From contig JBAYNW010000001.1 of assembly GCA_041678605.1 (NCBI GenBank), forward strand, positions 13,947 through 77,946: a stretch of DNA of 64,000 nt, written 5' to 3'. This DNA comes from Candidatus Gastranaerophilaceae bacterium (GTDB lineage: Bacteria; Cyanobacteriota; Vampirovibrionia; Gastranaerophilales; Gastranaerophilaceae). A program made the translations under genes and the position numbers. Shown here one piece after another: positions 897 to 62,687 of this stretch (its first letter is position 1; the number at the start of each line of letters is the position of its first letter). The notes beneath the pieces were generated by a model that saw only the letters and a list, made by a program, of their open reading frames with translations, ran no database searches and was not told the DNA's origin.

Positions 897-1772
897 ATGA
901 CTAAATCAAATAATTTATTCGAATTTGAAAGAAATTTTTCTGCTTGTTCCACCCTTGAGGGGGAACCGACATTGTGTAAAAATTTCGAAGGGGAGAGAAA
1001 AACAATAGTAATCGGCACAGACGAAGCAGGCCGGGGTCCCGGTGCGGGCGGCGTTTTTGCAAGTGCGGTTTATTTTCCTGACCCAAATAAGGAACTGATA
1101 AAAAAACTTGCCTTCCTTAATGATTCTAAAAAGCTTTCAAAGAAAAAGAGAGAAGAACTGTATGAAATAATCATTGAAAACGCAATCCATTCGACCGTTT
1201 GCGTAGAAGTTGAAGAAATAGAAAAAATAAATATCTTGAATGCATCTTTAAAGGCAATGAAATTGGCTGTTGAAAATGTCATAAACGAGATGCAAAGCTG
1301 CATAGATGCAAAGACGCAAAGCGACGCAACTCTTGTTGAGAAAAGAAACTTAGAGATGTGTCATTGCGAGGAGCGAGGCACGAGCGACGCGGCAATCCAA
1401 AAAAAATCTTCTCACCTCTCACCTCTCACTTCTCACATTTTGGTCCTTGTTGATGGAAACAAGTTAATTAAAAACTTCCCCTCGCCCCTTGGGGGAGAGG
1501 GCAGGGTGAGGGTTAATATAACTCAAAAGTTTATAATCAAGGGCGACTCAAAGTCCGCAAGCATTGCGGCGGCAAGTATTTTGGCAAAAGTTTCACGTGA
1601 CAGATATATGAAGGAACTTGGCAAAAAATTTCCGCAGTACAACTGGGGGCAAAACGCAGGATATTTGACGGCAGAACATTTAGATGCTATTGATAAATAT
1701 GGACTAACACCAATTCACAGGAAAAGTTTTTTGAGGAAACACAACGCAAAGCAACTAAGCCTTTTGAATTGA
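897..1772 (+). CDS. rnhB: ribonuclease HII, with in-frame repeat insertions
   Basis: Motifs GTDEAGRGPGAGGVFASAV, LNDSKKLS, VDGN, KGDSKSASIAAASILAKVSRD and NAGY..AEH. True start is uncertain because the N-terminal 35 aa are repeat-derived. Confidence 0.85.
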   Translation: MTKSNNLFEFERNFSACSTLEGEPTLCKNFEGERKTIVIGTDEAGRGPGAGGVFASAVYFPDPNKELIKKLAFLNDSKKLSKKKREELYEIIIENAIHSTVCVEVEEIEKINILNASLKAMKLAVENVINEMQSCIDAKTQSDATLVEKRNLEMCHCEERGTSDAAIQKKSSHLSPLTSHILVLVDGNKLIKNFPSPLGGEGRVRVNITQKFIIKGDSKSASIAAASILAKVSRDRYMKELGKKFPQYNWGQNAGYLTAEHLDAIDKYGLTPIHRKSFLRKHNAKQLSLLN

Positions 1773-5325: not shown

Positions 5326-6237
5326 ATGTTCAGGTTAGAAAAATTTATGGGAAGAAGAGTTTTGAAATCATCTCTATTGGATGATTTCGGCGTTGCTGCG
5401 TTTTTTACAACGAGAGATTTGCCGCTGAAATCAGGCGAAAGAGAAGATTTGATTGAAGAAGTCGAAAACAACAAACGCCTTGTTTGCGAAGGACTTGGTA
5501 TCCCTGCAGAAAACCTCATAATTCCTGTTCAAACTCACAGCGACAATGTAAGATGTATAGGGGCAAAGACGCATAGAAGCGTAGAAAATTTAAACATTTC
5601 AGCCTTTCAGCCTTTCAGCCCTTCAACCCTGGAAAACAACGACGCACTTATAACTGACCGGCCACAAATTGCACTGGCACTAAATTTTGCCGATTGCGTT
5701 CCGATTATTTTTTACGACCCGATTAAAAAAGCTGCCGCAGCGGCTCATGCCGGCTGGCGTGGAACAGCGGCAAAAATCGGCCCAAAAACAGTCAAAAAAA
5801 TGGCTGAAAATTTTGGTTCAAAACCTGAAGACATAATTGCACTTATCGGCCCGGCAATCGGAAAATGCTGTTTTGAAGTGGGAGAAGATGTTAAAGAAAA
5901 ACTGCTCGTCTCTGCGTCACTGCGAGGCTTAAAATGTAAAAATCAGCCAAAGTCGTCCACCGAAGCAGTCTGTCCAAAAGACAATGCCGGCAAGATTGCT
6001 TCGGTGGGTATTTCAAGCCCAGCCGATAATCAATGCCTCGCAATGACGGTTTGTGATAACAATAATATTGATTTAAAACAGATTAACAAACTTCAACTAT
6101 TAGCCATTGGGGTAAGAAAAATAGATTTATGCGAGTATTGCACTTCTTGCAGAACTGATTTATTCTTTTCTTATAGAAAAGAAAACGGCAATACCGCCAG
6201 ACATTCGGCAGTTATAATGATAAGAAATGAGAGATAA
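5326..6237 (+). CDS. pgeF: peptidoglycan editing factor PgeF / YfiH (DUF152 laccase-domain) with two in-frame repeat insertions
   Basis: Motifs VQTHSDNV, NFADCVPI, AHAGWRGT, GPAIGKCCFEVG and LFFSYRKENGNTARH. Confidence 0.8.
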   Translation: MFRLEKFMGRRVLKSSLLDDFGVAAFFTTRDLPLKSGEREDLIEEVENNKRLVCEGLGIPAENLIIPVQTHSDNVRCIGAKTHRSVENLNISAFQPFSPSTLENNDALITDRPQIALALNFADCVPIIFYDPIKKAAAAAHAGWRGTAAKIGPKTVKKMAENFGSKPEDIIALIGPAIGKCCFEVGEDVKEKLLVSASLRGLKCKNQPKSSTEAVCPKDNAGKIASVGISSPADNQCLAMTVCDNNNIDLKQINKLQLLAIGVRKIDLCEYCTSCRTDLFFSYRKENGNTARHSAVIMIRNER

Positions 6238-11074: not shown

Positions 11075-12850
11075 ATGATTAAAACAAAGTACAAAACAAG
11101 CAATTGCGGGGTATTAAACCTCAATAACTTAAACGAAGAATTTACGCTTTCGGGCTGGGCATCCTGCATCAGAGATTTGGGCGGAATTATTTTTGTGGAA
11201 TTAAGAGACAGAAGCGGCTTTTTTCAATTGGTTTCAGATCCGCAGGTTAACCCGCAGGTTCACAAAACTTTTGAAAAATTAAAAACAGAATTTGTTGTTA
11301 CGGTCAGGGGCAAAATCACCCGACGTCCCGAAGAAACTTACAACGAAAAACACGCCACCGGTCAGGTCGAAATGTATCCCGAGTTTATTGAAATCCTTTC
11401 CGAGGCTAAGGTTTTACCATTCGCACTTGAAGATGATAATGTATCGGAAGATATAAGGTTAAAATACCGTTATCTTGATATAAGACGCGAAAAGACTTTG
11501 AACAACCTGATTTTGCGTCATAAAATTGTTACCGCTGCGAGAAATTACTTGAACAAACAGGACTTTTTAGAGGTGGAAACACCGATTTTAATCAATACGA
11601 CACCTGAAGGGGCAAGAGATTATTTGGTTCCTTCAAGGGTTCAGGAGGGCAAATTTTATGCACTTCCGCAGTCACCTCAAATTTTCAAACAACTGCTGAT
11701 GGTGGGAGGAATCGAAAAATACTACCAAATCGCAAAATGCTTTAGGGATGAGGATTTGAGAGCTGACAGGCAGCCTGAATTCACTCAAATCGATCTGGAA
11801 ATGTCTTTTGTCGAACAGCAGGATGTAATCGAGCTTGTCGAAGGGCTTTTGGTTGATACTTTTAAGGAAGCAGGTGTTGAGATTAAGCCTCCGTTTATCC
11901 AAATGACTTACAAAGAGGCAATGGAGCGTTTTGGCTCGGACAAGCCCGACACACGTTTTGGACTGGAACTTTTTGACGTAACCGACATTATGCAAGCCTC
12001 GACTTTTGAGGCGTTCAAAGGCGTAATCGCCAACGGCGGGACAGTTAGAGCGATTAAAATTCCCGGAATTGCAAATTACTCAAGAAAAGATATGGACGAC
12101 GTAAGAAATTTAGCGATTTCTTTCGGTGCAAAAGGGCTTGCGTGGGTGACTTATATGGAAACAGGCGAAGTAAAATCACCTGTATTCAAGTTCTTAACGG
12201 AAGAGCAGATTGCCGAATTGCAGACACGCTCAGGTGCCGTCAAAGGCGATATCGTTTTCTTTGTGGCAGACAAACCGAACGTAGTTTTTGATGTTCTGGG
12301 AAGATTTAGGTTACATTTTGGTAAAAAGCTTGAAATGATTGACGAGAGTAGGCACAATTTACTCTGGATTGTTGATTTTCCTATGTTTGAATACTCTGAA
12401 GAAGAGCAAAGATATATGGCGAAACACCATCCGTTCACGTCACCTAATTTGGAAGATATTGACAAAATGGAAACAGACCCTGCAAACTGCCGTTCAATCG
12501 CCTATGATATAATTTACAACGGGGCAGAGCTGGGTGGCGGAAGCGTCAGAATTCACTCAAGCGAAGTACAGGAACGTGTATTTAAGGCGTTAGGATTTTC
12601 ACAGGAGGAAGTCCAAAAGAAATTCGGATTTATGGTAAATGCTTTCAAATACGGAACACCTCCTCATGCCGGTCTGGCAATCGGCTTGGACAGGCTTGTG
12701 GCACTTCTGGCAAGAACAGAGTCCATTCGTGACGTGATTGCGTTCCCTAAAAATTCAAGTGCCAAGTGTCTTATGACAGACGCACCCGCGGAAGCTTCCT
12801 TGCTTCAGATGAGAGAATTGCACCTGAAAAGCACTGTGACAAAACGTTGA
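11075..12850 (+). CDS. aspS: aspartate--tRNA ligase
   Basis: Motifs GWASCIRDLGG.IFVELRDRSG, FRDEDLRADRQPEFTQIDLEMSF, GGGSVRIH and GLAIGLDRLV. Confidence 0.95.
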   Translation: MIKTKYKTSNCGVLNLNNLNEEFTLSGWASCIRDLGGIIFVELRDRSGFFQLVSDPQVNPQVHKTFEKLKTEFVVTVRGKITRRPEETYNEKHATGQVEMYPEFIEILSEAKVLPFALEDDNVSEDIRLKYRYLDIRREKTLNNLILRHKIVTAARNYLNKQDFLEVETPILINTTPEGARDYLVPSRVQEGKFYALPQSPQIFKQLLMVGGIEKYYQIAKCFRDEDLRADRQPEFTQIDLEMSFVEQQDVIELVEGLLVDTFKEAGVEIKPPFIQMTYKEAMERFGSDKPDTRFGLELFDVTDIMQASTFEAFKGVIANGGTVRAIKIPGIANYSRKDMDDVRNLAISFGAKGLAWVTYMETGEVKSPVFKFLTEEQIAELQTRSGAVKGDIVFFVADKPNVVFDVLGRFRLHFGKKLEMIDESRHNLLWIVDFPMFEYSEEEQRYMAKHHPFTSPNLEDIDKMETDPANCRSIAYDIIYNGAELGGGSVRIHSSEVQERVFKALGFSQEEVQKKFGFMVNAFKYGTPPHAGLAIGLDRLVALLARTESIRDVIAFPKNSSAKCLMTDAPAEASLLQMRELHLKSTVTKR

Positions 12851-12854
12851 TTGG

Positions 12855-13084
12855 GGGTAAATGGGAAAGGGAAACAGGAAAAGGTGGAAACGGTGAGACG
12901 TGAGAGGTGAGACGTGAGAAGAGAAACGGGAAACGGGAAAGGAAATTGGGAATTGGGAATTGGGAATTGGTAATTGAACCGTTCGACCATTCAACCATTC
13001 AACCATTCAGCCTTTAAGCCTTTCGACTTATCAACTCCCTTAATCACTTCGTAAAAAGCCTTTCAACTGTTCAACCTTTCAACC
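12855..13084. repeat. composite heptanucleotide (STRR-like) repeat array, forward orientation
   Basis: Successive tandem 7-mers GTGAGAC/GTGAGAG, GAAACGG, GGGAATT/GGTAATT, TTCAACC/TTCGACC, CTTAAGC and CTTATCA, then CTTAATCACTTCGTAAAAAGCC. Confidence 0.9.
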
Positions 13085-13090
13085 AAGATT

Positions 13091-13990
13091 ATGCAAGTAT
13101 TCAATGAAATAAATAAAAATAAAGGATTTTCTTTGGCGTTTGGATTTTTCGACGGGGTACATATCGGACATCAAGCGGTAATTAAGAGTGCTGTGAATTA
13201 CGCAAAAAAAAATGGCTGTAAATCAGCTATAATAACATTTCAAGACCATCCTTGCTGTTTTTTCTACCACGTTAAGCCAAAATACCTTATAAGAAAGCAC
13301 GACAAAATTAAATTTTTTGAAGATTTGGGCGTGGATTACCTCTATTTTCTTAAGTTTGACGAATATTTGGCGATGATGGACGCTTCCGAATATTTAAAAG
13401 ACGTTATCATAAAAAACTTTGCCCCGTCGGCTATTTCAACGGGGTTTAACTATTTTTTCGGAGCAAAAAAATCAGGAGATGTTAATTATCTAAAAAAGAT
13501 GCAGGAAGAATTAAATTACAAATATTTTGAAACTCCGCCTGTTCTCTACGATTCTGAGATTGTGAGCAGTACAAGAATTCGTGAGGATTTAACTTTGGGC
13601 AACGTGGAACTTGTAAATTCCATGCTGGGGTATGAATATTTTTTGGAAGAAACCGTTATTGAAGGCGAAAAACTCGGCGGTGAATTGGGATTCAAAACAG
13701 CTAACCTCGTTTACCCTGACAATCTTGTTGAAATCGGCCGCGGAGTTTACAAAGTCAGAGCAGAATATAACGGTAAAAGTTTTGATGCAATAGCCAATTA
13801 CGGAATTCGCCCGACCATCGGGAATAAAGAAACTCCGATTTTGGAAGTTCATATTCTAAATTTCGACAAAAATATTTACGGTGAAAAAATCAAAGTCACA
13901 TTCCTAAAAAAAATCAGAGATGAGAAGAAATTCCATTCGCTTGACGAATTAAAAGAACAAATAAGACAAGATATTAGCTCAACAAAGTAG
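13091..13990 (+). CDS. ribF: bifunctional riboflavin kinase / FAD synthetase
   Basis: FGFFDGVHIGHQ, SSTRIR and GFKTANL motifs; about 300 aa. Confidence 0.9.
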   Translation: MQVFNEINKNKGFSLAFGFFDGVHIGHQAVIKSAVNYAKKNGCKSAIITFQDHPCCFFYHVKPKYLIRKHDKIKFFEDLGVDYLYFLKFDEYLAMMDASEYLKDVIIKNFAPSAISTGFNYFFGAKKSGDVNYLKKMQEELNYKYFETPPVLYDSEIVSSTRIREDLTLGNVELVNSMLGYEYFLEETVIEGEKLGGELGFKTANLVYPDNLVEIGRGVYKVRAEYNGKSFDAIANYGIRPTIGNKETPILEVHILNFDKNIYGEKIKVTFLKKIRDEKKFHSLDELKEQIRQDISSTK

Positions 13991-14026: not shown

Positions 14027-14998
14027 ATGAAAGTCGTCATACTCGGTTCAGGTCAAATGTTAACAAATTTAATCGCAGGGTGCATGGATGCAGGCTGCAA
14101 CATTGTTGGCGTTTTCAGGTATGAGAGGGTCAGATACCCACTAATAGACAGGCTTATTATTGATATCCTTAACCCGAGTAAAGAATACAACTACATAAAA
14201 GGCCACAAGTTATATGAAATCAAGGCACGGAGTGCAAATTCGGCAGAATTTAAAAAGGAAATCCTAAGGTTGAATGCCGATTTGATTTTGGTCGGAACCT
14301 GGGGAGAAAAAATTAAAAAAAGCATAATAGATTTGCCAAAATTTGCCACAATAAACGTTCATCCTGCACTTTTGCCCAAATATCGCGGGCCAAACCCTTA
14401 TCTGCAATCAATAAAACATCTGGAAAAAGAATCCGGCGTTACATTTCATCTTATGGATGAAAATTTCGACACAGGTGCAATTTTGCTCCAAAAAATCGTT
14501 AAAATCGAACCGGCCGATACAGGAAAAGAATTACGTGATAAAACGGCAACCGCCGCCAGAGAAGGTGTTTGCGAGCTTATTAACAACCTTGATACAGAAA
14601 TTATAATTCCAATCCCTCAAGATGAAAAACATTCAAGTTATTTCCCTCAAATAACAGAAAACGACGTTATGCTTGATTTTTCCAAGTCGGCAGAGGAAGT
14701 TTCAGCTCATATCAGGGGGTTTCACCCATGGTATAAATGTTATTTTGCCTATAATAAGCAGTTTTTCACCCCAAATCCTTATGAATTGGAAATAATATCG
14801 AAATCTTCTCATGTCTCGCATCTCACCTCTCACTCAGCCATTGTCGCAAAATCTGCAAAAGACAATTCAATAACCGTCTTATGTGGGGACGGGAAGCTTT
14901 TAAAAATGAATGACGTAAGATTATACGGGTTCTTAAACCGATTTTTCACCAAATTTTACATAAGGCACATAGTAAAAAACTCAAGCAAGGTCTGTTAA
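14027..14998 (+). CDS. formyltransferase family protein (Fmt-like)
   Basis: INVHPALLPKYRGPNPY and HLMDENFDTGAIL motifs. It lacks the typical Fmt N-terminal TQPD motif, so it is named only at family level. Confidence 0.7.
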   Translation: MKVVILGSGQMLTNLIAGCMDAGCNIVGVFRYERVRYPLIDRLIIDILNPSKEYNYIKGHKLYEIKARSANSAEFKKEILRLNADLILVGTWGEKIKKSIIDLPKFATINVHPALLPKYRGPNPYLQSIKHLEKESGVTFHLMDENFDTGAILLQKIVKIEPADTGKELRDKTATAAREGVCELINNLDTEIIIPIPQDEKHSSYFPQITENDVMLDFSKSAEEVSAHIRGFHPWYKCYFAYNKQFFTPNPYELEIISKSSHVSHLTSHSAIVAKSAKDNSITVLCGDGKLLKMNDVRLYGFLNRFFTKFYIRHIVKNSSKVC

Positions 14999-19074: not shown

Positions 19075-19232
19075 TTTTTATCCCAACTAACGTAGATTGT
19101 ACACCCTTTTTTTAAGTCGCTGTACTATTATAATAGTAACAATTAAAAAAAGCAATAAAATAGACTAAAAATATTAACTTATTTGACATTGTTTTGGTAT
19201 AATTGATATTATTTAGTAATCGGGAGCTAAAA

Positions 19233-19748
19233 ATGGCAGAAAAAATAATTATATTTTCAGGCAAGCAATATTCAGGCAAAGATACGGTTGCGAGGTTTTT
19301 ACTTAAACAAATGCCCGATTACAAGCGTTTTGCTATGGGCGATGTGATAAAGCTTGAATATGGGAAGCAAAAAGGTCTGACATACGAGGAAATCGAGAAA
19401 AATAAACCTGTTTATCGTCAGGATTTAATAGATTTGGGCAATTGGGGCAGAAGTGTCGACCCTGATTACTGGCTCAAAAAAATTATTTCCCAACCCGGAA
19501 AAATTATTGTAACGGATGTTCGTGTTTGGCATGAATACGAGATTTTCAAAGCTGCCGGAGCAATTGCGATAAGGGTTGAAGCTTCCCGTGAAGTTAGGGC
19601 AAAAAGAGGTGAGCTTATTGGGGAAAACGATGTAACCGAGATAGGCTTGGATAAAATAAAAGATTGGGATTATGTGATTGAAAATAATTCTGATTATGAG
19701 AGTTTGAAGAAAAAGTCACTGGAATTGGCTGAAGGGTTGAAGGGTTGA
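19233..19748 (+). CDS. P-loop kinase of the phosphomevalonate-kinase (animal type) / phage dNMP-kinase fold
   Basis: FSGKQYSGKDT P-loop, VTDVRVWHE, RVEASREVRAKRG and DWDYVIENNS. Collinear from memory with human PMVK (FSGKRKSGKDF ... VSDTRR ... DWVIEN). RBS GGGAG. Confidence 0.55.
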   Translation: MAEKIIIFSGKQYSGKDTVARFLLKQMPDYKRFAMGDVIKLEYGKQKGLTYEEIEKNKPVYRQDLIDLGNWGRSVDPDYWLKKIISQPGKIIVTDVRVWHEYEIFKAAGAIAIRVEASREVRAKRGELIGENDVTEIGLDKIKDWDYVIENNSDYESLKKKSLELAEGLKG

Positions 19749-19896
19749 AAGGTCGAAAGGCTTTTTACGAAGTGATTAAGTGACTGGGTGATTAAGTGAC
19801 TAAGTGCAACAAAAAAAATTAAAACTTTTCTTTTCCCGTTTCTCTTCTCACGTCTCACCTCTCACGTTTCCCCCTTTCCTTTTCCCGTTTCTTTCA
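19721..19896. repeat. composite heptanucleotide repeat array, reverse orientation
   Basis: GGTTGAA units, GGCTTTTTACGAAGTGATTAAGTGACTGGGTGATTAAGTGACTAAGTGCAAC, AAAAAAAATTAAAAC, CCCGTTTC and CTCACGT units. Confidence 0.9.
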
Positions 19897-19940
19897 CTTG
19901 CCCTATTCACTTATTAACTCTTTTATAGTACTATTTTTCT

Positions 19941-28808: not shown

Positions 28809-28831
28809 TTGTTATGTAAATCCTTTTAATA

Positions 28832-29282
28832 AGTGATTAAGTGACTAGGTGACTAAGTGATTAAGTGCAATTAAGTTTTTTTATCTAAATATTTTTTTAA
28901 TCCTGATGTTAAAGCACTAATTTTACCTAATTCATTCAGCAATACATCTAAATTATCTAAATATCCTAAATTTTTTGAAATAATCAATTGAGTTTCAAGT
29001 TCGGCAATTGACCCTAACGCAATATCTAGAAATCTTGAAGTTTCTCTAGCCGAGTATCTGGCACAACCCTCTGCAATATTTGAAGGAATAGAGATAACGC
29101 ATCTCCTAATTTGATTTGTTAAACTAAACATTTCATATTTAGGAAATTTATTTGTAATTAAATAAATTTTTGTTACGAAATTAATTGATTCTTTCCAAGC
29201 TTCTAAATCTTTATGATGCATCCTTATTTATATCCTTCTTTTTGTTGCACTTAGTCACTTAATCACCTAGTCACTTAGTTAC
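28832..29282. mobile_element. cassette: four-helix-bundle gene bounded by ~40-bp imperfect terminal inverted repeats of the CACTTAATCAC module
   Basis: Left AAGTGATTAAGTGACTAGGTGACTAAGTGATTAAGTGCAA (28832-28871). Right TTGCACTTAGTCACTTAATCACCTAGTCACTTAGTTACTT (29243-29282). About 36/40 complementary. Confidence 0.4.
28871..29221 (-). CDS. four-helix-bundle protein (23S rRNA intervening-sequence protein / Avd-like family)
   Basis: Motifs DLEAWKES, FPK.E.FSLTNQIRR...SIPSNIAEG and GS..ELETQL. Confidence 0.85.
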   Translation of the reverse strand: MHHKDLEAWKESINFVTKIYLITNKFPKYEMFSLTNQIRRCVISIPSNIAEGCARYSARETSRFLDIALGSIAELETQLIISKNLGYLDNLDVLLNELGKISALTSGLKKYLDKKT

Positions 29283-29287
29283 TTTTA

Positions 29288-32263: not shown

Positions 32264-32348
32264 GAAGGAAGAGGAAACGGTGAGACGTGAGAGGGAAGAC
32301 GTGAGAAGAGAAACGAGAAGCTTTGAGGTTCAGAAGGTTAGAGGTTTA
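32264..32348. repeat. short heptamer array (GTGAGAC/GAAACG/GGTT units)
   Basis: GAAACGGTGAGACGTGAGAGGGAAGACGTGAGAAGAGAAACGAG ... GAGGTTCAGAAGGTTAGAGGTTTAG. Confidence 0.75.
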
Positions 32349-32379: not shown

Positions 32380-33141
32380 TCAATAACTCATCTGCCAGCC
32401 TTCGTCGATGATTCTGCCGATACAATAGGAACCGGATTTATTTGTTCCGCCGTTATATCCGTCGTTACAAAGCTTGTTGGATTTCCAGTAGGTAAGTTTA
32501 GCCCCGCCAACGGGATATAATGCAGGGCCATTATCATTGACAATCCTAAAGTAAAATATATCGCGACCAAAAGCATTTGGTTTTTTGAGCCCGTTTACAT
32601 CAATATAAACACTTGCCATACATACTTTTGTCAGAGAATCAGCTGAACCGCTGCAACCTAAATATGGGGTTTTGCCAAGAAAAACCGACATACCATCCGC
32701 TGTTATAAACCTGTAATAAGATGTCCAATCATATCCACTTGAAGTGTTAGTGCCATCAAAATTTAGTGCTATTGTATTTGAAAAACAGCCTGAGGTTGTC
32801 GTATCACAATTCTTTGCCACATTAAAATAAGCAGCTATCTTATCGCCCATAGTTTTTGCATCGGCCGAATCAAAGAAGCAGCTTAAATCACCTATGCATC
32901 CTGAATCTGCGGCCATCTGGATTAATGCCTGATTCCACAAGGAGTAAGCTTTTCTCACGCCTGCGACGTATCCTACTTTTTGGGATTCGGCAATCAGTCC
33001 CGGAATCATAAGCCCTGCGACCACGCCGATAATGCCGATTGTGACTAAAACTTCGGCGAGAGTGAAGGCGAGTGAGCGAAAGAAAACTCCCTGCTGTTGG
33101 GCTTGCCAGCCCAACCTACTTTGTTTTTTATCGGATTTCAT
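32380..33141 (-). CDS. prepilin-type N-terminal cleavage/methylation domain protein (pilin/pseudopilin-like)
   Basis: FTLAEVLVTIGIIGVVAGL class III signal region. C-terminal IDVNG.KKPN..GRDIF motif shared with ORF 57501-58193. Confidence 0.7.
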   Translation of the reverse strand: MKSDKKQSRLGWQAQQQGVFFRSLAFTLAEVLVTIGIIGVVAGLMIPGLIAESQKVGYVAGVRKAYSLWNQALIQMAADSGCIGDLSCFFDSADAKTMGDKIAAYFNVAKNCDTTTSGCFSNTIALNFDGTNTSSGYDWTSYYRFITADGMSVFLGKTPYLGCSGSADSLTKVCMASVYIDVNGLKKPNAFGRDIFYFRIVNDNGPALYPVGGAKLTYWKSNKLCNDGYNGGTNKSGSYCIGRIIDEGWQMSY

Positions 33142-33218: not shown

Positions 33219-33434
33219 ATGGACAAGGAATATTTACAAAAATTTGCAAACAATCTGAAAAAAATTAGGAACAAAAAAGGCCTAAAACAAGACGACTTAG
33301 CTGTTTCGGATGAAATTTCGCGTTCCATGATAAGTCTGGTTGAGACGGTAAAAACAGACCTCACCGTTACCAAGGTAAAAATAATTGCCGATGCCCTTGG
33401 TGTAAACCCCAAGGAGTTATTTGATTTTGATTAG
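33219..33434 (+). CDS. XRE-family helix-turn-helix transcriptional regulator
   Basis: LKKIRNKKGLKQDDLA....ISRSMISLVE HTH pattern; 71 aa. Confidence 0.75.
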   Translation: MDKEYLQKFANNLKKIRNKKGLKQDDLAVSDEISRSMISLVETVKTDLTVTKVKIIADALGVNPKELFDFD

Positions 33435-33441
33435 CCGCAGT

Positions 33442-37645: not shown

Positions 37646-37746
37646 ACAGAATTTCCTTGACGTAATATTTATTACAAAATATTACAAAAATGCTTAAGAA
37701 AATAAATTCGTTTTAACATCTCTTAACATTACACTTGTATTTTTGA

Positions 37747-37793
37747 TATATATGTGATATATTAAATATATATGTGATATATTAAATATATAC
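37747..37793. repeat. tandem 20-bp duplication ATATATGTGATATATTAAAT x2.3 upstream of the sigma factor gene
   Basis: Two exact copies at 37747-37766 and 37767-37786, followed by a partial third. Confidence 0.85.
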
Positions 37794-38840: not shown

Positions 38841-39232
38841 TCGAAAGGCTTAAGGGCTTAAGGGCTTTTTACGAAGTGATTAAGTGACTGGGTGATTAAG
38901 TGATTAAGTGCAATAATGCTTCGCAAATTTTTAAAAAACAGGGAACGGGGGGCAGGGAAGGGAATTTCTTGTCGTTGCGAGGAGAAACAAAGTTTCGACG
39001 AAGCAATCCAAAAAATTGCCTCATTATTCCTGAAAGGCTTTTTACGAAGTGATTAAGTGACTGGGTGATTAAGTGATTAAGTGCAACAAAAAAATTAAAA
39101 CTTTTCTTCTCACGTCTCACCTCTCACGTCTCACGTTTTCCCAATTCCCAATTCCCAATTCCCAATTTCCTTTTCCCGTTTCCCGTTTCTCTTCTCACGT
39201 CTCACGGTTTCCCCCATTTTCCATTTCCATTT
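38841..39232. repeat. composite repeat block (reverse orientation) containing two direct copies of the ~50-nt CACTTAATCAC module
   Basis: GGCTTTTTACGAAGTGATTAAGTGACTGGGTGATTAAGTGATTAAGTGCAA occurs near 38862 and 39036, followed by CTCACGT, CCCAATT and CCCGTTT heptamer runs. Confidence 0.9.
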
Positions 39233-39726: not shown

Positions 39727-39791
39727 TAATGTAGAAATAAAAATAGCGGGTTTTAAAAATTAAACCCACTATTTAAATTTATTTTATATTT

Positions 39792-40412: not shown

Positions 40413-40682
40413 TTTAATTTCTCCTTTACGTTATATGTTACTTACTAAAATTACATTGATGTTTATATAAAGTCCGTAAAGGAAAAATTTTACCCTTTTG
40501 GAAAAATTATTTACAAAAATTAATACTCAACATTTTTACGCTTAAAATTTTACTCCGATTTTCAGAGAGTTAGGCAACTTAGATATACAAATACCACAAG
40601 TAACAACTCAGGTAAAAATGCAAACAAGTCTTGCATCATTGTGAGGAGGTAAATGTTCTGACCTATGCTAAAGAGCGTTCGA

Positions 40683-40818
40683 GTCATTGCGAGGGGTGGG
40701 TTTCCGGCTATGCATAGATTGTCCACCGAAGCAATCTATCTTATGTTTGTACATTGGCAAGATTGCTTCGAAATGCAAACCTCTTTGTGTGTCTACAAGT
40801 TTCATGCCTCGCAATGAC
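40683..40818. repeat. palindromic miniature element GTCATTGCGAGG ... GCCTCGCAATGAC
   Basis: Terminal 12-13-bp inverted repeats. Internal CCACCGAAGCAATC / GATTGCTTCG pair. Related copies at 5915-6049, 56017-56110 and 57003-57096; half copies at 1360-1398, 38975-39025 and 46637-46685. Confidence 0.8.
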
Positions 40819-40889
40819 GCGGCAGTGTAAGTTTTAAGTGTGTTTATTTCTTGCCGACTTGAGTTATTACCTGTTACAACCCTTGTTAA

Positions 40890-43464: not shown

Positions 43465-43708
43465 GTGAAGGAGAAGGGGGGAAAGTGAGACGTGAGAGGT
43501 GAGACGGGAAACGGAAATTGGTAATTGGTAATTGGGAATTGGGAATTGGTAATTGAACCGTTCGACCCTTCAACTTATCGACTCATCGACTTATCGACTT
43601 ATCAACTTATCAACTAGAAAACGGGAAAAGAAAAGTTTTAATTTTTTTGTTGCACTTAGTCACTTAATCACCCAGTCACTTAATCACTTCGTAAAAAGCC
43701 TTTCAGCC
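43465..43708. repeat. composite heptanucleotide repeat array, forward orientation
   Basis: GTGAGAC, GAAACGG, GGTAATT/GGGAATT, TTCGACC and CTTATCGA runs, then GTTGCACTTAGTCACTTAATCACCCAGTCACTTAATCACTTCGTAAAAAGCC. Confidence 0.9.
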
Positions 43709-44991: not shown

Positions 44992-45233
44992 TTATGAGTC
45001 GATGAGTCGAAAGGTTAATTTTTCAGTGTCGTTGCGAGGAGAAACAGTGAGACGTGAGAGGTGAGACGTGAGAAGAGAAACGGGAAACGGGAAAGGAAAT
45101 TGGGAATTGGGAATTGGTAATTGAGAACAGAACCCTTCGACCATTCAACTCTTCGACCTTTCAACCCTTCAGCCTTTAAGCCCTTAAGCCCTTCGACTTA
45201 TCAACCCTTCAACTTATCGGCTTAATCACTTCG
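44992..45233. repeat. composite heptanucleotide repeat array, forward orientation
   Basis: Same module order as 12855-13084. Its 3' end supplies the stop codon of ORF 45226-45687. Confidence 0.9.
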
Positions 45234-46432: not shown

Positions 46433-46842
46433 GTTGGTTGGCTTTTTGCGAAGTGATTAAGGGAGTTGATAAGTCGAAAAGGCTTAAGGGCTTAAAGGGT
46501 GAAGGGTTGAAGGGTTGAAGGGTCGAATAGCTTTTTACGAAGTGATTAAGTGACTGGGTGATTAAGTGATTAAGTTCAATAATGCTTCGCAAATTTTTAA
46601 AAAACAGGGAACGGGGGCAGGGAAGGGAATTTCTTGTCGTTGCGAGGAGAAACAAAGTTTCGACGAAGCAATCCAAAAAATTGCCTCATTATTCCTGAAA
46701 AGCTTTTTACGAAGTGATTAAGTGACTGTGACCGGGTTGAACGGTCGAACGGTTCAATTACCAATTCCCAATTACCAATTCCCAATTTCCTTTCCCGTTT
46801 CCCGTTTCTCTTCTCACGTCTCACTTCCCTCCTGTCCCCTTT
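46433..46842. repeat. composite repeat block, reverse orientation, with a near-identical copy of the 38862-39087 unit
   Basis: 46529-46728 matches 38862-39087 with about 4 differences. Flanked by GGTTGAA, CCAATT and CCCGTTT heptamer runs. Confidence 0.9.
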
Positions 46843-47181: not shown

Positions 47182-47580
47182 AAGGGCTTAAAAAGTGAGA
47201 CGTGAGATGTGAGACGTGAGAAGAGAAACGGGAAACGAGAAAGGAAATTGGGAATTGGTAATTGGAAACAGAACCTTTCGACCATTCAATTTAGTGACTT
47301 AAATTCAGATCCCGCATCAGAATGAATAACAAAAGTCAACCGCCATACCCTAAGCAGTGCGGGATGACAATAAAGTGAAAAGGTAATTGGAAATTGGCAA
47401 TTGGGAATTGGTAATTGAACCGTTCGACCCTTCGACCCTTCGACTTATCAACTAGAAGACGGGAAACGGAAAGTTTTAATTTTTTTGTTGCACTTAATCA
47501 CTTAATCACCCAGTCACTTAATCACTTCGTAAAAAGCCCTTCGACCTTTCAACCCTTCACCCCTTAAGCCCTTAAGCCCT
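47182..47580. repeat. double composite heptanucleotide array (two forward units separated by a TCCCGCA/TGCGGGA palindromic unit)
   Basis: Unit 1 at 47182-47300; palindromic unit at 47309-47366; unit 2 at 47380-47580, ending at the stop codon of the NarL-type regulator. Confidence 0.9.
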
Positions 47581-48308
47581 TATACCAATCCCTCGCGGAC
47601 TGCCTTAACTGCCGCCTGTACTCTGTCATTTACGCACATTTTTTGCAAAATCGAGCAAACGTGAGCTTTCGCTGTGTGAACGCTTACAATTAATTCTTTT
47701 GCAATTTCCGTATTGCTTTTTCCCATGACAAGATGTTTTAAAACTTCACATTCTCTTTCTGTCAGAGGAACTCGGCCGGTGGCCCCCGTTTTTGACGGCA
47801 AAAGACTTGTGTTTTCAGGTTTAGGGAAAGCGTTTAATGCTATCTGTGCTACTTGCGGGTCAATCCAGCAAACACCATTTGCAACATCTCTAACCACGTC
47901 GGCAAGTTTCACCGGATCAATGTCCTTAAGGCAATATCCGTGGGCTCCTGACGCAAGTGCCGCTATAACTTCCTCTTCCCTGTCGTGAGAAGTAAGTGCT
48001 ATGATTTTTGTTTCGGGCAGTATTTCTTTTACCTTAATTGTTGCTTCTATTCCATTCATCTCCGGAAGTCCCAAATCCATCAAAACTACATCGGGTTTAA
48101 ATTTGGCTATAAGTTCCAGCCCTGCTGCAGCATTGTCACACTCGGCAATAACATTTATATCTTTGTTCGAATTTAACGCACACCGCAATCCCACTCTTGT
48201 TAATTTAAAATCTTCAACAATTATAACGTTTAATGCTTTTATTTTTGTACTGTCATTTTCGGCAGGCTTATGTTTGTGCTTCGATGAAGCAGTTTTTGTT
48301 TCGCTCAT
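47580..48308 (-). CDS. NarL/FixJ-family response regulator (LuxR-type HTH)
   Basis: Receiver VIIVEDFKLTRVGL...DLGLPEMNG. HTH LTERECEVLKHLVMGKSNTEIAKELIVSVHTAKAHV. No histidine kinase is adjacent. Confidence 0.85.
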   Translation of the reverse strand: MSETKTASSKHKHKPAENDSTKIKALNVIIVEDFKLTRVGLRCALNSNKDINVIAECDNAAAGLELIAKFKPDVVLMDLGLPEMNGIEATIKVKEILPETKIIALTSHDREEEVIAALASGAHGYCLKDIDPVKLADVVRDVANGVCWIDPQVAQIALNAFPKPENTSLLPSKTGATGRVPLTERECEVLKHLVMGKSNTEIAKELIVSVHTAKAHVCSILQKMCVNDRVQAAVKAVREGLV

Positions 48309-53444: not shown

Positions 53445-53476
53445 TTTTTGTTATCCCTCAATATTTATTGTATTTA

Positions 53477-53550
53477 GGTGAAAAGGTGAATGGGTGAACG
53501 GATTAAAGGTTATTAAACTTTTCACCCTTTCAGCCTTTAAGCCTTTCAAC
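53477..53550. repeat. opposed heptamer runs (GGTGAA units vs TTCACC/TTCAGCC units) forming an imperfect hairpin
   Basis: GGTGAAAAGGTGAATGGGTGAACGG ... TTCACCCTTTCAGCCTTTAAGCCTTTCAAC between accB and accC. Confidence 0.7.
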
Positions 53551-54015: not shown

Positions 54016-54040
54016 TTTCTCTATTCCTCACTTTTTCAAA

Positions 54041-54109
54041 GGAAATAGTAAATAGGAAATGGTAAATAGATAGCTAATTTCTATTCCCTATTCCCTATTT
54101 TCTATTCAC
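54041..54109. repeat. opposed heptamer runs (AAATAGG units vs CTATTCC units) forming an imperfect hairpin
   Basis: GGAAATAGTAAATAGGAAATGGTAAATAG ... CTATTCCCTATTCCCTATTTTCTATTCAC between efp and accB. Confidence 0.7.
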
Positions 54110-55992: not shown

Positions 55993-56122
55993 GTAAATGC
56001 CAACATCAAGCAAGTCGTTGCGAGGAGTGAGCTTGCGAGCGACGTGGCAATCCAAAACAGTACATAATCCTTCTTGGATTGCTTCGGCTAAAGCCTCGCA
56101 AAGACATAATTTGCAAACGCCA
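55955..56122. repeat. left copy of 168-nt direct repeat (rsgA 3' end plus palindromic CGTTGCGAGG element)
   Basis: Differs from 56941-57108 at 2 positions. Confidence 0.9.
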
Positions 56123-56940: not shown

Positions 56941-57108
56941 AACAAAATATTTATAAGGATTTGGAAGAAGACAAATAAGTAAATGCCAACATCAAGCAAG
57001 TCGTTGCGAGGAGTGAGTTTGCGAGCGACGTGGCAATCCAAAACAGTACATAATCCTTCTTGGATTGCTTCGGCTAAAGCCTCGCAAAGACATAATTTGC
57101 AAACGCCA
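56941..57108. repeat. right copy of 168-nt direct repeat
   Basis: Differs from 55955-56122 at 2 positions. Confidence 0.9.
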
Positions 57109-59681: not shown

Positions 59682-61268
59682 GTGAGAAGTAATCGTATAA
59701 AATATTGTTTTATTTCGTTTTGCATTTTGTTAATAGGGGTGCAGTTTGTTCTTGCAGGTGAAACTTTTCAGAATAACCTGCTTAAGGCCGACCTTTATCA
59801 GACCCCGTCCGGCGGAGTTAAGGTAACTTTGTACACCGGCAAACCTTACAATGACAACGTCGTTGTCAATAAAAAAAGTGACTTTGAATATGTTATTCTG
59901 ATGCCTGAAACCTCAAATTCTTTGACGGCAAAACCATCGTTAACATCCGTGGCAGATACGGTTAAAGGCATTGAGATTAAGACACAGCAGTACGAAAATC
60001 AGGTTAAGGGCTACACTAAGATAGTCATTTCAACCGCAAAACCCGTTGAAATAACCACACAAGTCCAAACTTTGGCCGTTTCTGACTATAAATTAAGTGA
60101 AAAGGATTACAAAGAATTGCTCTCCCAATCGGCGAAGAAGGCCACCGCTCCGGTTAAAAAAGAAGCGATTAAATCTGTCCAAAAACCAAAACCAGCCACA
60201 ATAAAGATAGGCACACCCGTTTTGGTTCAAAAAACAATGAAAAAGTTCACCTCCGCAAAAAAAACAGCCACGGCTAAACCTGTTTCAAAACCGGTTTCAG
60301 CTGCTGCTCACAAAACAATAGAAAAACCTCAAAAACAACCTGCACTGCAGCAACCTGAAGTTCAACCCGCATTGGTAGAAGAAAAGGCTCCGGCTTTGGT
60401 TGAAGAGCCGAAAATTGAAAGCGAAGCTACGGCTCCGATTCCTGAAAAAATTGCAGAAATACCCCAGCCCGTGGGAAGAATTCAGAAATACAAAAATATA
60501 ATAAAAAATAATCTTTATGCCGTTTTAGGCGTGATTTTTGCAATTTTTGTTTTACTGCTTTTGGGTGCGAGAAGGATGACCAAAAATATTAATAAACAGA
60601 AAGAAGATTTTATAAGCCATTTGGAAGAAAAGCCTTTACCGGTTAGGAATTATTCAGAAAAAATCAATGATAATATGAACTGGAGAGAAAAATTTCAGAC
60701 TTACGTTGAAGCCACACAGGCTTCTGACGGGGACGTGCAGAAAGATGAAAATATCCGGAATACTCAGGATTTGGATGAATTATTTGCTGACGAAGTCCCC
60801 GATATTTCTGAAGAAAAAACCGAAAATGAAACGATATCCTCACTTGATGAATTGGGAGAAATGTTTGAACAGGACAATGCCGACGAACAGGACTTTTCAA
60901 TAGAAGAACTTTTGGGTGAAGAAGAAGAGAAAGAAGAAATCGGAGAAGAAGTAGAAGAAGAAAACCTTTCAGCCCTTCAGCCTTCCGGCCCTTCTGCCGA
61001 AGAAGATGAATTTATCAAATCAGAATTTGCCATTGATGACGATAAAGGATTCTATCTGGTTGATTTTGAAGATGCAACAGCACTTGTCGGACATATAGCG
61101 GAAGAAATTTTTATTCTGAAACGCTTTGATGAGAAGGTCAGAGGCAGTCTGCAAGCCAGATTAGACGAGAAAAAAGGAACCAGCACCAGTTATATGACAA
61201 AGGTAGGCGGTTTTAGAGGGCTTGTTGAGGTAACGCCTGATAATATGAATTTGTTAATTGAACTGTAA
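59682..61268 (+). CDS. hypothetical single-pass membrane protein with Pro/Lys-rich linker and very acidic cytoplasmic region
   Basis: Signal/TM at the N-terminus, a central TM (LYAVLGVIFAIFVLLLLG) and an E/D-rich segment. GTG start. Confidence 0.5.
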   Translation: MRSNRIKYCFISFCILLIGVQFVLAGETFQNNLLKADLYQTPSGGVKVTLYTGKPYNDNVVVNKKSDFEYVILMPETSNSLTAKPSLTSVADTVKGIEIKTQQYENQVKGYTKIVISTAKPVEITTQVQTLAVSDYKLSEKDYKELLSQSAKKATAPVKKEAIKSVQKPKPATIKIGTPVLVQKTMKKFTSAKKTATAKPVSKPVSAAAHKTIEKPQKQPALQQPEVQPALVEEKAPALVEEPKIESEATAPIPEKIAEIPQPVGRIQKYKNIIKNNLYAVLGVIFAIFVLLLLGARRMTKNINKQKEDFISHLEEKPLPVRNYSEKINDNMNWREKFQTYVEATQASDGDVQKDENIRNTQDLDELFADEVPDISEEKTENETISSLDELGEMFEQDNADEQDFSIEELLGEEEEKEEIGEEVEEENLSALQPSGPSAEEDEFIKSEFAIDDDKGFYLVDFEDATALVGHIAEEIFILKRFDEKVRGSLQARLDEKKGTSTSYMTKVGGFRGLVEVTPDNMNLLIEL

Positions 61269-61286
61269 ATTCGTGAGAGGTGAGAA

Positions 61287-62687
61287 GTGAGAGGTGAGAG
61301 GAAATTATTAATATTTATCGCCCTTATTACCTTGCTTTTAACTGGTTGCATTAAAAAAGATTCCCGAACGGTCATTCAATTCGCAACATGGGGTTCGCAA
61401 TCGGAAGTTGCAATTTTGAAACCGATTTTGGCCGAATTTGAAAGGGAAAATCCTGATGTAAAAGTTGATTTAATACATATTCCGCAGAATTATTTCCAAA
61501 AAATTCACCTGCTTTTTGCGTCAAATTTGGCTCCTGACGTGATTTTTATAAACAACTTATATCTGCCAGTTTATGCCAATGCCGGCGTGTTGCAGGAGTT
61601 GAAAAGCCGAACAGTTGAAAAGCCGATAAGTTTGACTGTTTCAAAGAAAAACCATTCAACCTTTCGACCATTCAACCATTCAATTTTTTATAATAAGGCA
61701 TTGGATGCACTATCTTATGACGGAAAGCTTTACGCCATTCCCCGAGATGTTTCAAACCTTGTAATTTACTACAACAAAGACCTTTTTGACAAATACAAAG
61801 TGCCATACCCTAAAGCAAATTGGACGTTTAAGGATTTTTTAGCTGTGGCTCAAAGGCTTACCAAAGACACAAATAACGACGGCAAAAGGGATATTTGGGG
61901 TGTAAGTTTTGAGGAAGATCCGCCGTTGTTTTATTTGCCTTATTTAATGTCAGAAGGCGGCGGGGTTTTGTCGGACGATTTGAAAACTTTGATAATAGAT
62001 ACACCGCAGAGCCAAAAAGGGCTTAGGTTTTATGCCGATTTAAGAAATAAGTACCACGTGGCACCGACAAAGGCCGAGAGTGCGAGTGCGACCATGGCTC
62101 AATTGTTTTTGCAAGGAAAGCTTGCGATGCAGGTTTCGGGGCGTTGGCTTGTGCCAAAATACAGGGAAGATGCGAAATTTAATTGGGATGTGATTAATTT
62201 CCCAAGAGGGGATAAGGGCAGTGTTGTTCCGCTTGACGCTTCAGGCTGGGCAATTTCAAAAAGTTCTAAGCATAAGGAAGAGGCGGCAAAGCTGGTTGAA
62301 TTTTTGGCGTCAAAAAAAAGTATTGAGAAATTTACCCGAAGCGGGCTGATTGTACCTGCGAGAGTTGATGTTGCGGAGGGCGAATTTTTAGATAGAGATA
62401 GTGCAATTAAAAATTGTTCCTCTTATTTGACCCCCCACCCTTACCTTACCTCTCAACCCAAAGATACTCAATCTTTGGATTTCGGCAGAGTCCCTCAAGG
62501 GGGGAGGAAGAACCCATATAATGTAAGATTTTGCAGACCAAAAAGCGAAAGAGTTTTCATTGACGTAATCAAAACCTCAAAACCCACTCCGGTTTCGGTT
62601 GATTACAGTGAAATTCAGGACGAACTGCAAGAAAAAACGAATTATTTGTTTAATTTAAACACTAATGCTTGTCATGTTTTGAATTAA
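61287..62687 (+). CDS. ABC transporter extracellular solute-binding protein (family 1, sugar type) lipoprotein with in-frame repeat insertions
   Basis: Lipobox LLLTGC. Motifs IQFATWGS and LAPDVIFINN, plus a family-1 SBP pattern throughout. Confidence 0.75.
   Translation: MRGERKLLIFIALITLLLTGCIKKDSRTVIQFATWGSQSEVAILKPILAEFERENPDVKVDLIHIPQNYFQKIHLLFASNLAPDVIFINNLYLPVYANAGVLQELKSRTVEKPISLTVSKKNHSTFRPFNHSIFYNKALDALSYDGKLYAIPRDVSNLVIYYNKDLFDKYKVPYPKANWTFKDFLAVAQRLTKDTNNDGKRDIWGVSFEEDPPLFYLPYLMSEGGGVLSDDLKTLIIDTPQSQKGLRFYADLRNKYHVAPTKAESASATMAQLFLQGKLAMQVSGRWLVPKYREDAKFNWDVINFPRGDKGSVVPLDASGWAISKSSKHKEEAAKLVEFLASKKSIEKFTRSGLIVPARVDVAEGEFLDRDSAIKNCSSYLTPHPYLTSQPKDTQSLDFGRVPQGGRKNPYNVRFCRPKSERVFIDVIKTSKPTPVSVDYSEIQDELQEKTNYLFNLNTNACHVLN

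Follow-up and report, generated by a model that had tools for sequence, protein, structure and literature searches.

A dispersed mosaic of tandem 7- and 8-nt repeats with fixed module order and G-then-C polarity in a Gastranaerophilales genome

What are the composite repeat arrays that recur along the genome of an uncultured Gastranaerophilales bacterium, and how did they come to stand where they do? The stretch examined here (contig JBAYNW010000001.1, positions 13,947 to 77,946; 64,000 nucleotides, hereafter the window, with coordinates counted from its first letter) carries many blocks of short tandem units, one of which occupies 12855-13084. An earlier note, made from the sequence alone, read these blocks as heptanucleotide arrays strung together in a fixed order and guessed that they might mark a cyanobacteria-related lineage. 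We found that the arrays have a fixed higher-order structure, are dispersed through the genome as blocks, lack secondary structure, are anchored at the 3' ends of genes with a G-rich tract preceding a C-rich one, and are occasionally translated in frame. We favour, at about even confidence, the view that they form a species- or population-specific mosaic satellite resembling the short tandemly repeated repetitive (STRR) sequences of cyanobacteria and the bacterial interspersed mosaic elements (BIMEs), which would grow by slippage, spread by block copying or gene conversion, and owe its polarity to transcription.

The window encodes DnaA, AspRS, RibF, GlyQ, EF-P, AccB/AccC, a sigma-70 factor and the flagellar export proteins FliR/FliQ/FliN. 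Its DnaA is 77-87% identical to those of metagenome-assembled genomes (MAGs) labelled Gastranaerophilales, Melainabacteria or "Cyanobacteria bacterium", which bears out the guessed affiliation; the host of the repeats belongs to the Gastranaerophilales (Melainabacteria), an uncultured, non-photosynthetic sister class of the cyanobacteria. Arrays were delimited with Tandem Repeats Finder (TRF), modules were counted in a regular-expression census, and nhmmer was used for profile searches. The census covered the 64-kb window and 38 metagenome loci, ~395 kb in total, and yielded 89 arrays, with at least 19 array sites in the window. Array bases lay outside open reading frames (ORFs) in 82% of cases, and the gaps bearing arrays had a median length of 404 nt, as compared with 79 nt for gaps overall.

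Direct reading and TRF both placed the modules listed in the earlier note at all seven of its long sites, in both orientations. At 12700-13250, the entire intergenic gap consists of GTGAGAC/GTGAGAG, GAAACGG and GGGAATT/GGTAATT, followed by octamers (xTTCAACC/xTTCGACC, CCTTAAGC and ACTTATCA) together with the motif CTTAATCACTTCGTAAAAAGCC. A full element is composed of two phase-coherent tracts, a G-rich one with a 7-nt period and then a C-rich one with an 8-nt period. The left tract is one continuous 7-nt array whose main units succeed each other in the order GTGAGAC, GAAACGG, GGGAATT and drift stepwise (GTGAGAC, GTGAGAG, GTGAGAC, GTGAGAA, GAGAAAC, GGGAAAC, GGGAAAG, GAAATTG, GGAATTG); the same order of variants is repeated at 12893, 45047 and 47195 and appears reverse-complemented at 39108. 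TRF reported period-7 arrays of GTGAGAC, GAAACGG and AATTGGG at each long site, with 2.6-5.7 copies. The right tract is one continuous 8-nt array of xTTCRACC, CCTTAAGC, ACTTATCR, a fossilised block and then more xTTCRACC, the fossilised block reading in the 8-nt register as GTTGCACT TAATCACT TAATCACC CAGTCACT TAATCACT TCGTAAAA AGCC. The heptamer description therefore fits the left-hand modules, whereas the right-hand ones (TTCAACC, CTTAAGC, CTTATCR and CACTTAAT) have an 8-nt period, a register that continues unbroken through the ~50-nt unit described earlier.

That unit proved to be conserved, but its true length is ~80 nt. The ~80-nt core, GGGAAAAGRAAAGTTTTAATTTTTTT(T)GTTGCAC... with a right end given as CGTAAAAAGCC / AAAAAGCC, is near-invariant in 42 copies, and the sequence before and after it differs among them. 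The mean pairwise identity of 40 cores was 96.4%, and the pilin paralogues that some of these cores flank are less alike (76-84% nucleotide identity) than the cores themselves. The 39-nt heart of the ~50-nt unit occurs in six exact copies in the window, with 0.00 expected from 100 shuffles. The module census, with modules lettered A to H (A, B and C heptamers, D octamers), gave strand-coherent strings such as B-A-B-C-D-F-H-D (12887-13085), A-B-C-D-F-G-H-D (43485-43709) and A-B-C-D-E-F (45000-45220), and reverse-complement strings at 19727, 38848 and 46393-46825. Over the 89 arrays the order was strongly non-random, as had been proposed: A was followed by B in 30/39 transitions, C by D in 29/49, G by H in 54/58 and H by D in 34/51, with B leading to C (24) or G (21) and D to E (15) or F (21). 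The junction GGTAATTGAACCGTTCGACC, or its GGGAATT variant, was found at 12/28 C>D junctions. The structure is that of a satellite with higher-order repeats, blocks of which are copied around the genome.

The succession of the two tracts follows a strict polarity, which we measured on TRF-defined arrays, a purine-fraction scan being too insensitive and a generic GC-skew scan too noisy. Where adjacent TRF arrays had opposite G/C bias, the G-rich array came first in 73 cases and the C-rich array in a single one, which is the seam between two consecutive elements. G-first outnumbered C-first by 7:0 in the window and by 63:1 in the metagenome loci, while L001 (a Gastranaerophilales MAG), L007 and a Fimbriimonadaceae outgroup locus gave 1:0 each; the 73 cases represent 47 distinct unit pairs, and the counts include many copies related by descent. 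The outgroup locus (L024, 7450-7590, from a Fimbriimonadaceae MAG of 67% GC) reads (GTGGTTT)n and then (CCAACCA)n, so the polarity may extend beyond the cyanobacterial phylum. In 150 kb of the Nostoc punctiforme plasmid pNPUN01, the sole adjacent array pair is also G-rich and then C-rich, and forms a strong hairpin (z -9.4).

Since G-then-C reads the same on both strands, flanking genes should see sense-strand G-rich repeats after their stop codons. The array nearest to a stop (within 60 nt; ORFs of at least 150 aa) was indeed G-rich on the sense strand in 55/61 cases and opposite in the other 6 (p = 5e-11). Stops had twice as many abutting arrays as starts did (61 vs 31), and arrays before start codons favoured neither strand (C-rich in 18 cases, G-rich in 13). 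In 25/57 cases the H end of the core stands 14-85 nt away from a convergent gene's stop. The orientation of the arrays relative to flanking genes was unbiased.

The main family does not fold. Compared with dinucleotide shuffles, 12851-13090 gave z = +0.38 and -0.59, 19715-19905 gave z = +0.35 and 43460-43715 gave z = +0.12, and the core folded worse than its shuffles on both strands (z = +1.66 and +1.60), which rules out the main family as a hairpin, a miniature inverted-repeat transposable element (MITE) or a structured RNA. Terminal inverted repeats (TIRs) and target duplications were absent from the copies read, no systematic search having been made. The G-rich 7-mer left end has no complementarity to the C-rich 8-mer right end, the exception to this lack of TIRs being inverted G-blocks around an IVP-like gene, and the ends of the elements fall at different modules in different copies. 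No transposase turned up among the ~30 of some 360 ORFs scanned against Pfam, a scan that included no search for REP-associated tyrosine transposases (RAYTs); the multi-copy gene next to the arrays is a type IV pilin and not a transposase. The composite family suggested by the earlier note is real in its dispersal, with a near-identical ~80-nt core at more than 40 loci, conserved junctions and variable flanks, but the copies read give no support to a transposon-like mechanism. Chi-like, replication-oriented sites were also rejected, as array orientations in the window are mixed on one side of dnaA. Neither sigma-70-like promoters nor intrinsic terminators were found within the arrays, and hairpin-plus-T-run terminators showed no enrichment (6 against 9.9 expected, and 25 against 21.0). 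Rfam gave no match at gathering thresholds in the window, and there was no tRNA or tmRNA. With the cut-off relaxed to E <= 1, the sole match was a weak one to Chlorobi-1 sRNA outside the arrays, at 39698-39774 (24.3 bits against a gathering threshold of 50, E 0.021), probably due to chance; a 13-bp terminator-like hairpin adjoins it at 39774-39741 on the minus strand.

Independent assemblies of the same organism contain the same repeats. An ENA contig (ERZ27247350) corresponds to window 38935-52099 at 99.985% identity with its two differences both outside tandem arrays, and Logan contigs of SRR6484787 are 100% identical to the window. Agreement among the three base for base in the arrays shows that the repeats are not the artefact of one assembly. 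No strain polymorphism was seen among the window, ENA and Logan sequences, and the metagenome loci are without allelic duplicates. Short-read contigs nevertheless tend to end inside long arrays: the ENA contig breaks at 38935, within the 38841-39232 composite, and at 57 cores matching a relaxed pattern in the window and loci, contigs ended on the G side in 26 cases and on the H side in 3.

The family has a narrow distribution. A 20-mer of the core had no exact match in 185,579 species-representative genomes (GTDB), and a 21-mer matched 38 stretches, all from one JGI metagenome (Ga0172381) and many near contig ends. These loci do not overlap with the unique DNA of the window and could come either from the same genome or from a close relative. 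An nhmmer profile search of the loci of relatives found neither the core nor X, a second repeat family described below. The repeats were thus found only in this organism or population and are species-specific. Relatives share the array architecture but not the unit sequences. In L001, short-period arrays are about as dense (28.6 vs 23.4 bases per kb) but made of other units (AAATAGG, AGATGCGT, TCACTGT and TTCACCYT), and its apt gene is flanked by the same composite in inverted orientation. Arrays turn over quickly at orthologous sites. In the 5' untranslated region of a dNMP-kinase-like gene, L002 has AGTYGAAC units and L008 purine-rich repeats of the GGAAAAG type, and the window has no repeats; upstream of dnaA, a CTCACGC seed of 1.5-2 copies in L002 and L008 corresponds to an expanded TCTCACG tract in the window. 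In L006 (5480-6320), the gap between the dNMP-kinase-like gene and dnaA, where the window has a repeat array, is taken up by a pilin-like gene (LAFTLAEVLITLGIIGVV) whose 3' end bears a short octamer array of the GAAGYTYA type. Among the papers searched, none linked Melainabacteria with such repeats or with Rho.

Modules also occur inside genes. In rnhB (897-1772), the orthologue of which in L001 lacks it, they form an in-frame insertion of ~39 codons whose octamers begin within the native codons GAG ATG CAA AG. A second in-frame insertion relative to L001, of 12 codons (~1476-1510), contains a small palindrome (CCCCTCGCCCCTTGGGGGAGAGGG). At the first rnhB site L001 carries another small palindrome, of different sequence (GGTGGGAT...ATCCCACC), so that this loop looks like a recurrent insertion spot. 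D-type octamers are also read in frame within a Cu-oxidase_4-family gene and an acidic linker (Table 1). The array at 61273-61306 supplies GAGG-N6-GTG with the start codon of a solute-binding-protein gene at 61287, likely a ribosome-binding site and start codon built from repeats.

In a family of type IV pilin-like genes, both the flanks and the leader codons are made from repeat modules. The window gene (32380-33141) has at least 10 further paralogues in the metagenome loci, at the 76-84% nucleotide identity given above, making at least 11 in ~395 kb. From the start codon to the mature end at A|FTLAEV, pilin leaders consist of X halves, antisense A/B/C heptamers and D octamers. In all six complete paralogues (6/6) the frame is open from a conserved start that has a Shine-Dalgarno-like motif; the leaders measure 31, 54, 68, 91, 93 and 100 codons, and a seventh copy cut at a contig end is consistent with an in-frame leader. 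Two kinds of start occur, TTG-AAA-AAT-TTT and, directly following an in-frame TAA, ATG-CTT-AAC-CGA. Leaders contain either 1 or 4 D units, a 24-nt difference, and the length differences between paralogues are all multiples of 3. Close paralogues, with at least 63% protein identity to the window pilin, have antisense arrays on the 5' side and sense arrays on the 3' side, bar two edge-overlapping arrays. As at contingency loci, units not divisible by 3 (7 and 8 nt) thus lie within the coding region of a surface protein in 6/6 cases. The window pilin gene adjoins a HicB-like antitoxin gene (33442-33801) and a possible helix-turn-helix-like small ORF (33219-33435, plus strand).

In the reading that we favour, slipped-strand tandem duplication would create the tracts and alter their length, in some cases starting from native sequence; this is suggested by the phase coherence of the tracts, the stepwise drift of their units and the seeding from native codons in rnhB. 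Whole blocks would then be copied elsewhere, probably by non-reciprocal recombination or gene conversion between arrays sharing modules, with a mobilising activity as a candidate alternative route. Recombination is suggested by the ragged ends, by the lack of obvious TIRs or target duplications in the copies read and by a higher similarity among cores than among the paralogous genes next to them, and block copying would account for a fixed order, conserved junctions and a near-identical ~80-nt core with differing flanks. The repeats may be mostly passenger DNA, transcribed within untranslated regions and translated in frame where coding sequence tolerates them. The constant polarity, with sense-strand G-rich repeats after stops, suggests that transcription is involved: either R-loops formed by untranslated G-rich RNA past a stop would aid slippage and favour expansion there, or the opposite arrangement is selected against, possibly as part of selection for a direction-sensing insulator. 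Several points weigh against this reading. The copying mechanism itself is inferred from sequence comparison, and the near-identity of the ~80-nt core could equally mean strong purifying selection. A purely passive model does not itself predict a 73:1 polarity or a 55:6 stop rule. The metagenome loci (~330 kb) were chosen for containing the core, and many of their copies are non-independent; their genome may or may not match that of the window. Finally, genes were called by a crude longest-ORF heuristic, a caveat for the polarity and stop counts too.

The strongest rival, which we consider unlikely, is that the arrays are bidirectional transcription insulators. From whichever side polymerase entered, the transcript would begin with a G-rich tract, followed by ~100 nt of unstructured RNA rich in C and poor in G; the C-rich RNA would suit Rho loading or, alternatively, R-loops of the G-rich RNA would stall the polymerase, so that sense transcripts would exit on a Rho-resistant G-rich tract while antisense ones carrying the C-rich tract would be terminated. 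G-before-C at 73:1 across unrelated unit families and species, sense-strand G-rich arrays beside stops at 55:6, the excess of arrays at stops over starts (61 vs 31), a core that folds less than its shuffles (z +1.6, both strands), the lack of enrichment of canonical hairpin-plus-T-run terminators, and the absence of a gene-orientation bias, as a symmetric device would show, are all consistent with it. The 8-nt tract and the reverse complement of the 7-nt tract also have the composition of a Rho utilisation (rut) site, which calls for at least 70-80 nt of such RNA, being by sequence reading C-rich and G-poor, with z mostly at or above 0. A tblastn search with E. coli Rho over 876 kb, a small sample, gave only weak matches (27-30% identity, E 6e-9/4e-7) and no Rho homologue, and Cyanobacteria are not known to encode Rho. 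Rho could load at least as well on RNA in C-then-G order, which leaves the observed order half explained; arrays also lie between co-transcribed genes (aspS-ribF) and within coding regions, and the sequence family is strictly species-specific. The pilin genes invite another explanation, that their copies are contingency (phase-variation) switches in which slippage shifts the frame and turns paralogues on or off, the flanking arrays promoting recombination between paralogues. All 6/6 complete paralogues are open through 31-100 repeat-built codons to A|FTLAEV, their length differences are multiples of 3 with D units numbering 1 or 4, array orientation is fixed in close paralogues (antisense 5', sense 3'), and at least 11 paralogues occur in ~395 kb. 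We hold this idea to be doubtful. No copy-number polymorphism was seen in the material compared, which represents a single strain, and the pyrimidine-rich strand of the modules is stop-free in all frames, which makes the open frames partly trivial. In four paralogues translation could really begin at a TTG six codons upstream of the mature end, which would turn the arrays into 5' untranslated regions, and the fixed orientation may just reflect duplication of the gene with its flanks. Because most arrays flank housekeeping genes (aspS, ribF, dnaA, efp, accBC), such a switch cannot explain the whole family in any case.

Two further possibilities are less probable still. The arrays could be a platform for a single-stranded RNA or DNA binder contacting every 7-8 nt (a cold-shock-domain, S1-like or other protein) and acting post-transcriptionally, similar to ideas put forward for TAACTGA repeats (PMC4679880) and Nostoc heptamers (bioRxiv 10.1101/2022.06.06.494920). 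Strict periodicity with conserved unit variants, unstructured strands, a near-invariant core, and a C-rich tract sometimes directly before a start (13062-13084 before ribF) speak for this; neither strand is favoured before starts (18 vs 13), orientation relative to genes is unbiased, no candidate protein was identified, and the binder would have to co-evolve quickly with units that are wholly different between close relatives. We regard this as quite improbable. That the arrays are conventional non-autonomous transposons (MITEs) or assembly artefacts is very hard to credit. They are multi-copy, short and intergenic, the IVP-like gene at 28871-29221 sits between inverted ~45-nt G-blocks like a TIR cassette, and short-read contigs often end in arrays; yet the solo arrays read show neither TIRs nor target duplications (no systematic scan was made), their ends fall at differing modules, they do not fold beyond shuffles, no transposase surfaced in the ~30 of ~360 ORFs scanned against Pfam, and the window, ENA and Logan agree base for base in the arrays. 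A broader version of the insulator and switch ideas, in which G-then-C is a direction-sensing gene-end code in Melainabacteria and Cyanobacteria, possibly also in others, and the pilin-leader repeats are frameshift switches, would give STRR-type repeats a long-sought function if true; we regard it as a long shot. The mosaic satellite shaped by slippage and block copying remains our preferred account.

A second repeat family, X, contributes structure of a different kind. Its members are hairpins of 100-200 nt with an outer stem GTCRTTGCGAGG/CCTCGCAAYGAC and an inner stem CGAAGCAATC/GATTGCTTCG. Besides three full copies in the window, half copies are embedded in arrays (Table 1) and in pilin leaders. 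X is common in the Ga0172381 loci and has no Rfam match; in the relative L008, a CGAAGCAATC...GATTGCTTCG hairpin lies upstream of dnaA. Two of the full copies stand in ~190-nt direct repeats (55950-56140 and 56940-57130) that flank a two-gene cassette (56223-56537 and 56524-56913), homologues of which (64-70% amino-acid identity) occur together in L038. A further hairpin unit, Y (cagATCCCGCAtcagaatgaataacaaaagtcaaccgccataccctaagcagTGCGGGATgac), has a near-identical copy in L030 (1040-1105), and its right arm is found beside the core in L042. The shorter sites of the earlier note contain the repeats it described, except that 54041-54109 is built of unrelated units (AAATAGT/CTATTCC); this site and 53477-53550 form a separate structural class, hairpins of the efp-accB-accC operon with arms made of repeats (z = -3.8 to -5.5). 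The site at 54791-54822 is weak (1.9 copies, TRF score 40) and lies within ORF 54751-55992 (RsgA GTPase by Pfam). Four sites lie beyond those listed earlier, all within ORFs: 1288-1436, 5597-5630, 60918-60998 and 61597-61683. A 23S_rRNA_IVP / bAvd-like four-helix-bundle gene (28871-29221, minus strand) is located between fliR and fliQ, with an inverted ~45-nt G-block on either side, the GTTGCAC ends turned towards the gene, and TTTTAAT/TTTTATT at the flanks; the whole (28829-29284) resembles an intervening-sequence-like cassette with long inverted arms.

Table 1. Repeat arrays, hairpins and associated genes in the window (letters, modules; rc, reverse complement; X and Y, hairpin families)
Feature	Coordinates	Strand	Context
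In-frame rnhB insertion, ~39 codons: AGATGCAA-type octamers, half X (~1358-1405), (TCTCACC)x4	1288..1436	+	
D-type octamers TTTCAGCC x4	5597..5630	+	in frame, Cu-oxidase_4 family gene (5326-6237)
Full composite B A4 B2 C5 / D4 F H D2	12855..13084	+	fills aspS stop (12850) to ribF start (13091)
Composite rc(D4 H G3), A-run, rc(B A A B); exact 39-nt core 19760-19798	19721..19896	-	overlaps last codons of ORF 19203-19748; upstream of dnaA (19941)
G-block, variant of the core's octamer part	28829..28872	-	left arm of inverted pair around IVP/bAvd-like gene
G-block	29240..29284	+	right arm of inverted pair around IVP/bAvd-like gene
Short B-A-A-B array and GAAGSTTAGAGGTTY units	32264..32348	+	directly 3' of pilin-like gene
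Type IV pilin-like gene: leader, then FTLAEVLVTIGIIG	32380..33141	-	unannotated ORF
Composite with two core copies (38864-38902, 39037-39075), then rc(A, C, B) tracts	38841..39232	-	after sigma-factor gene stop (38833); half copy of X (~38960-39030) between the cores
Full X, outer GTCATTGCGAGG/CCTCGCAATGAC, inner CGAAGCAATC/GATTGCTTCG	40625..40830	+	RNA z = -3.8
Full composite A3 B C6 / D F5, spacer, G3 H D	43465..43708	+	H end abuts GntR-family stop (43709, minus)
Composite rc(F)x2, X fragment tgtcgttgcgaggag (~45025-45045), A4 B2 C4 / D, E, F tract	44992..45233	+	
Two reversed elements (46433-46575, core 46530-46568; 46702-46824)	46433..46842	-	half X (~46625-46700) between them
Two consecutive elements: A4 B2 C3 D; C5 D F spacer G3 H D E; core 47499-47537	47182..47582	+	Y (~47300-47375) between them; right end at response-regulator stop (47580)
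Hairpin, arms (AGGTGAAA)n vs (TTTCAGCC)n	53476..53548		accB-accC gap; RNA z = -4.5, -3.8
Hairpin, arms (AAATAGT)n vs (CTATTCC)n	54040..54109		efp-accB gap; RNA z = -5.5, -5.1
Full X	56005..56115	+	RNA z = -2.7
Full X	56990..57100	+	near-identical to 56005-56115
(GAA)n then TTCAGCCC units	60918..60998	+	in-frame acidic linker, ORF 59682-61268; G-rich then C-rich
A-type array (GTGAGAG)x4	61273..61306	+	between stop (61268) and solute-binding-protein gene
AGTTGAAAAGCCGAAA x2.2 then AACCATTC x4.2	61597..61683	+	inside ORF 61287-62687; fold z = -1.2

Elsewhere in the window, two amino-acid permease paralogues of 535 aa each, ~65% identical, stand in tandem at 14981-18170, a pair kept in L002, L006 and L008. 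An AT-rich 20-nt tandem repeat (ATATATATGTGATATATTAA x2.3, 100% match) lies at 37746-37792, ~100 nt upstream of the sigma-factor gene (37898).

DNA of the STRR kind in a non-photosynthetic sister lineage suggests that the propensity to form it may predate the split from cyanobacteria or depend on shared replication or transcription machinery. The G-before-C and sense-G-at-stop regularities are transferable, and any model of such repeats must explain both. The in-frame prepilin leaders offer a specific place to look for phase variation in a lineage of gut or groundwater that is still uncultured, and at a practical level the arrays break short-read assemblies of these genomes.

How do these elements compare with known systems? 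STRRs have served for decades as fingerprinting targets in cyanobacteria, and the units of STRR1-3 are CCCCAGT, TTGGTCA and CAACAGT. Like the STRRs of heterocystous cyanobacteria, the present arrays have tandem 7-nt units (in the left tract only), occupy dispersed and mostly intergenic loci and stand side by side; they are found within the cyanobacterial phylum in the broad sense, and the array pair of pNPUN01 shares their G-then-C order. They differ in their host, a non-photosynthetic melainabacterium whose window carries flagellar export genes, in the 8-nt period of half of the element, and in the fixed higher-order module sequence with an ~80-nt core. No unit matches STRR1-3, although CACCCAGT in the core shares 6/7 bases with STRR1. 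We know of no description of a polarity rule or a stop-codon rule for STRRs. The function of STRR and heptamer arrays is still debated (PMC4679880; bioRxiv 10.1101/2022.06.06.494920). An ~80-nt unstructured core also sets the present elements apart from the small dispersed repeats of Nostocaceae, which they resemble in within-genome spread, association with heptamers and in-frame genic copies. Those repeats, attributed to Elhai et al. 2008, reportedly sit in heptamer arrays, with units of ~21-27 nt and hairpin potential.

BIMEs occur in hundreds of copies, often just after stop codons. The present elements are like the BIMEs of enterobacteria in being a species-specific intergenic mosaic of a small motif set, with a preferred order that our transition counts confirm. 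BIMEs are, however, built around repetitive extragenic palindromic (REP) hairpins that alternate in orientation, and RAYT transposases are associated with REPs (see also PMC3116915), whereas the main modules here are non-palindromic and non-folding (z -0.59 to +1.66); the separate X family is the more REP-like. Pneumococcal BOX elements, boxA-(boxB)n-boxC, are likewise modular intergenic repeats of fixed order and variable internal module number. BOX modules are 45-59 nt long with predicted stable stem-loops, unlike the 7-8-nt units and unstructured strands found here. At the opa loci of Neisseria, CTCTT repeats in the signal-peptide coding region switch expression on and off by slippage. The pilin leaders are similar in placing pyrimidine-rich, non-triplet repeats in the leader-coding part of multi-paralogue surface-protein genes; they differ in that the leaders also contain non-repeat modules, the same repeats stand at housekeeping loci, and no variation in repeat number was seen in the single strain sampled. 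Strict membership among the STRRs thus fails on unit sequence and host, and among BIMEs or MITEs on palindromy and terminal repeats.

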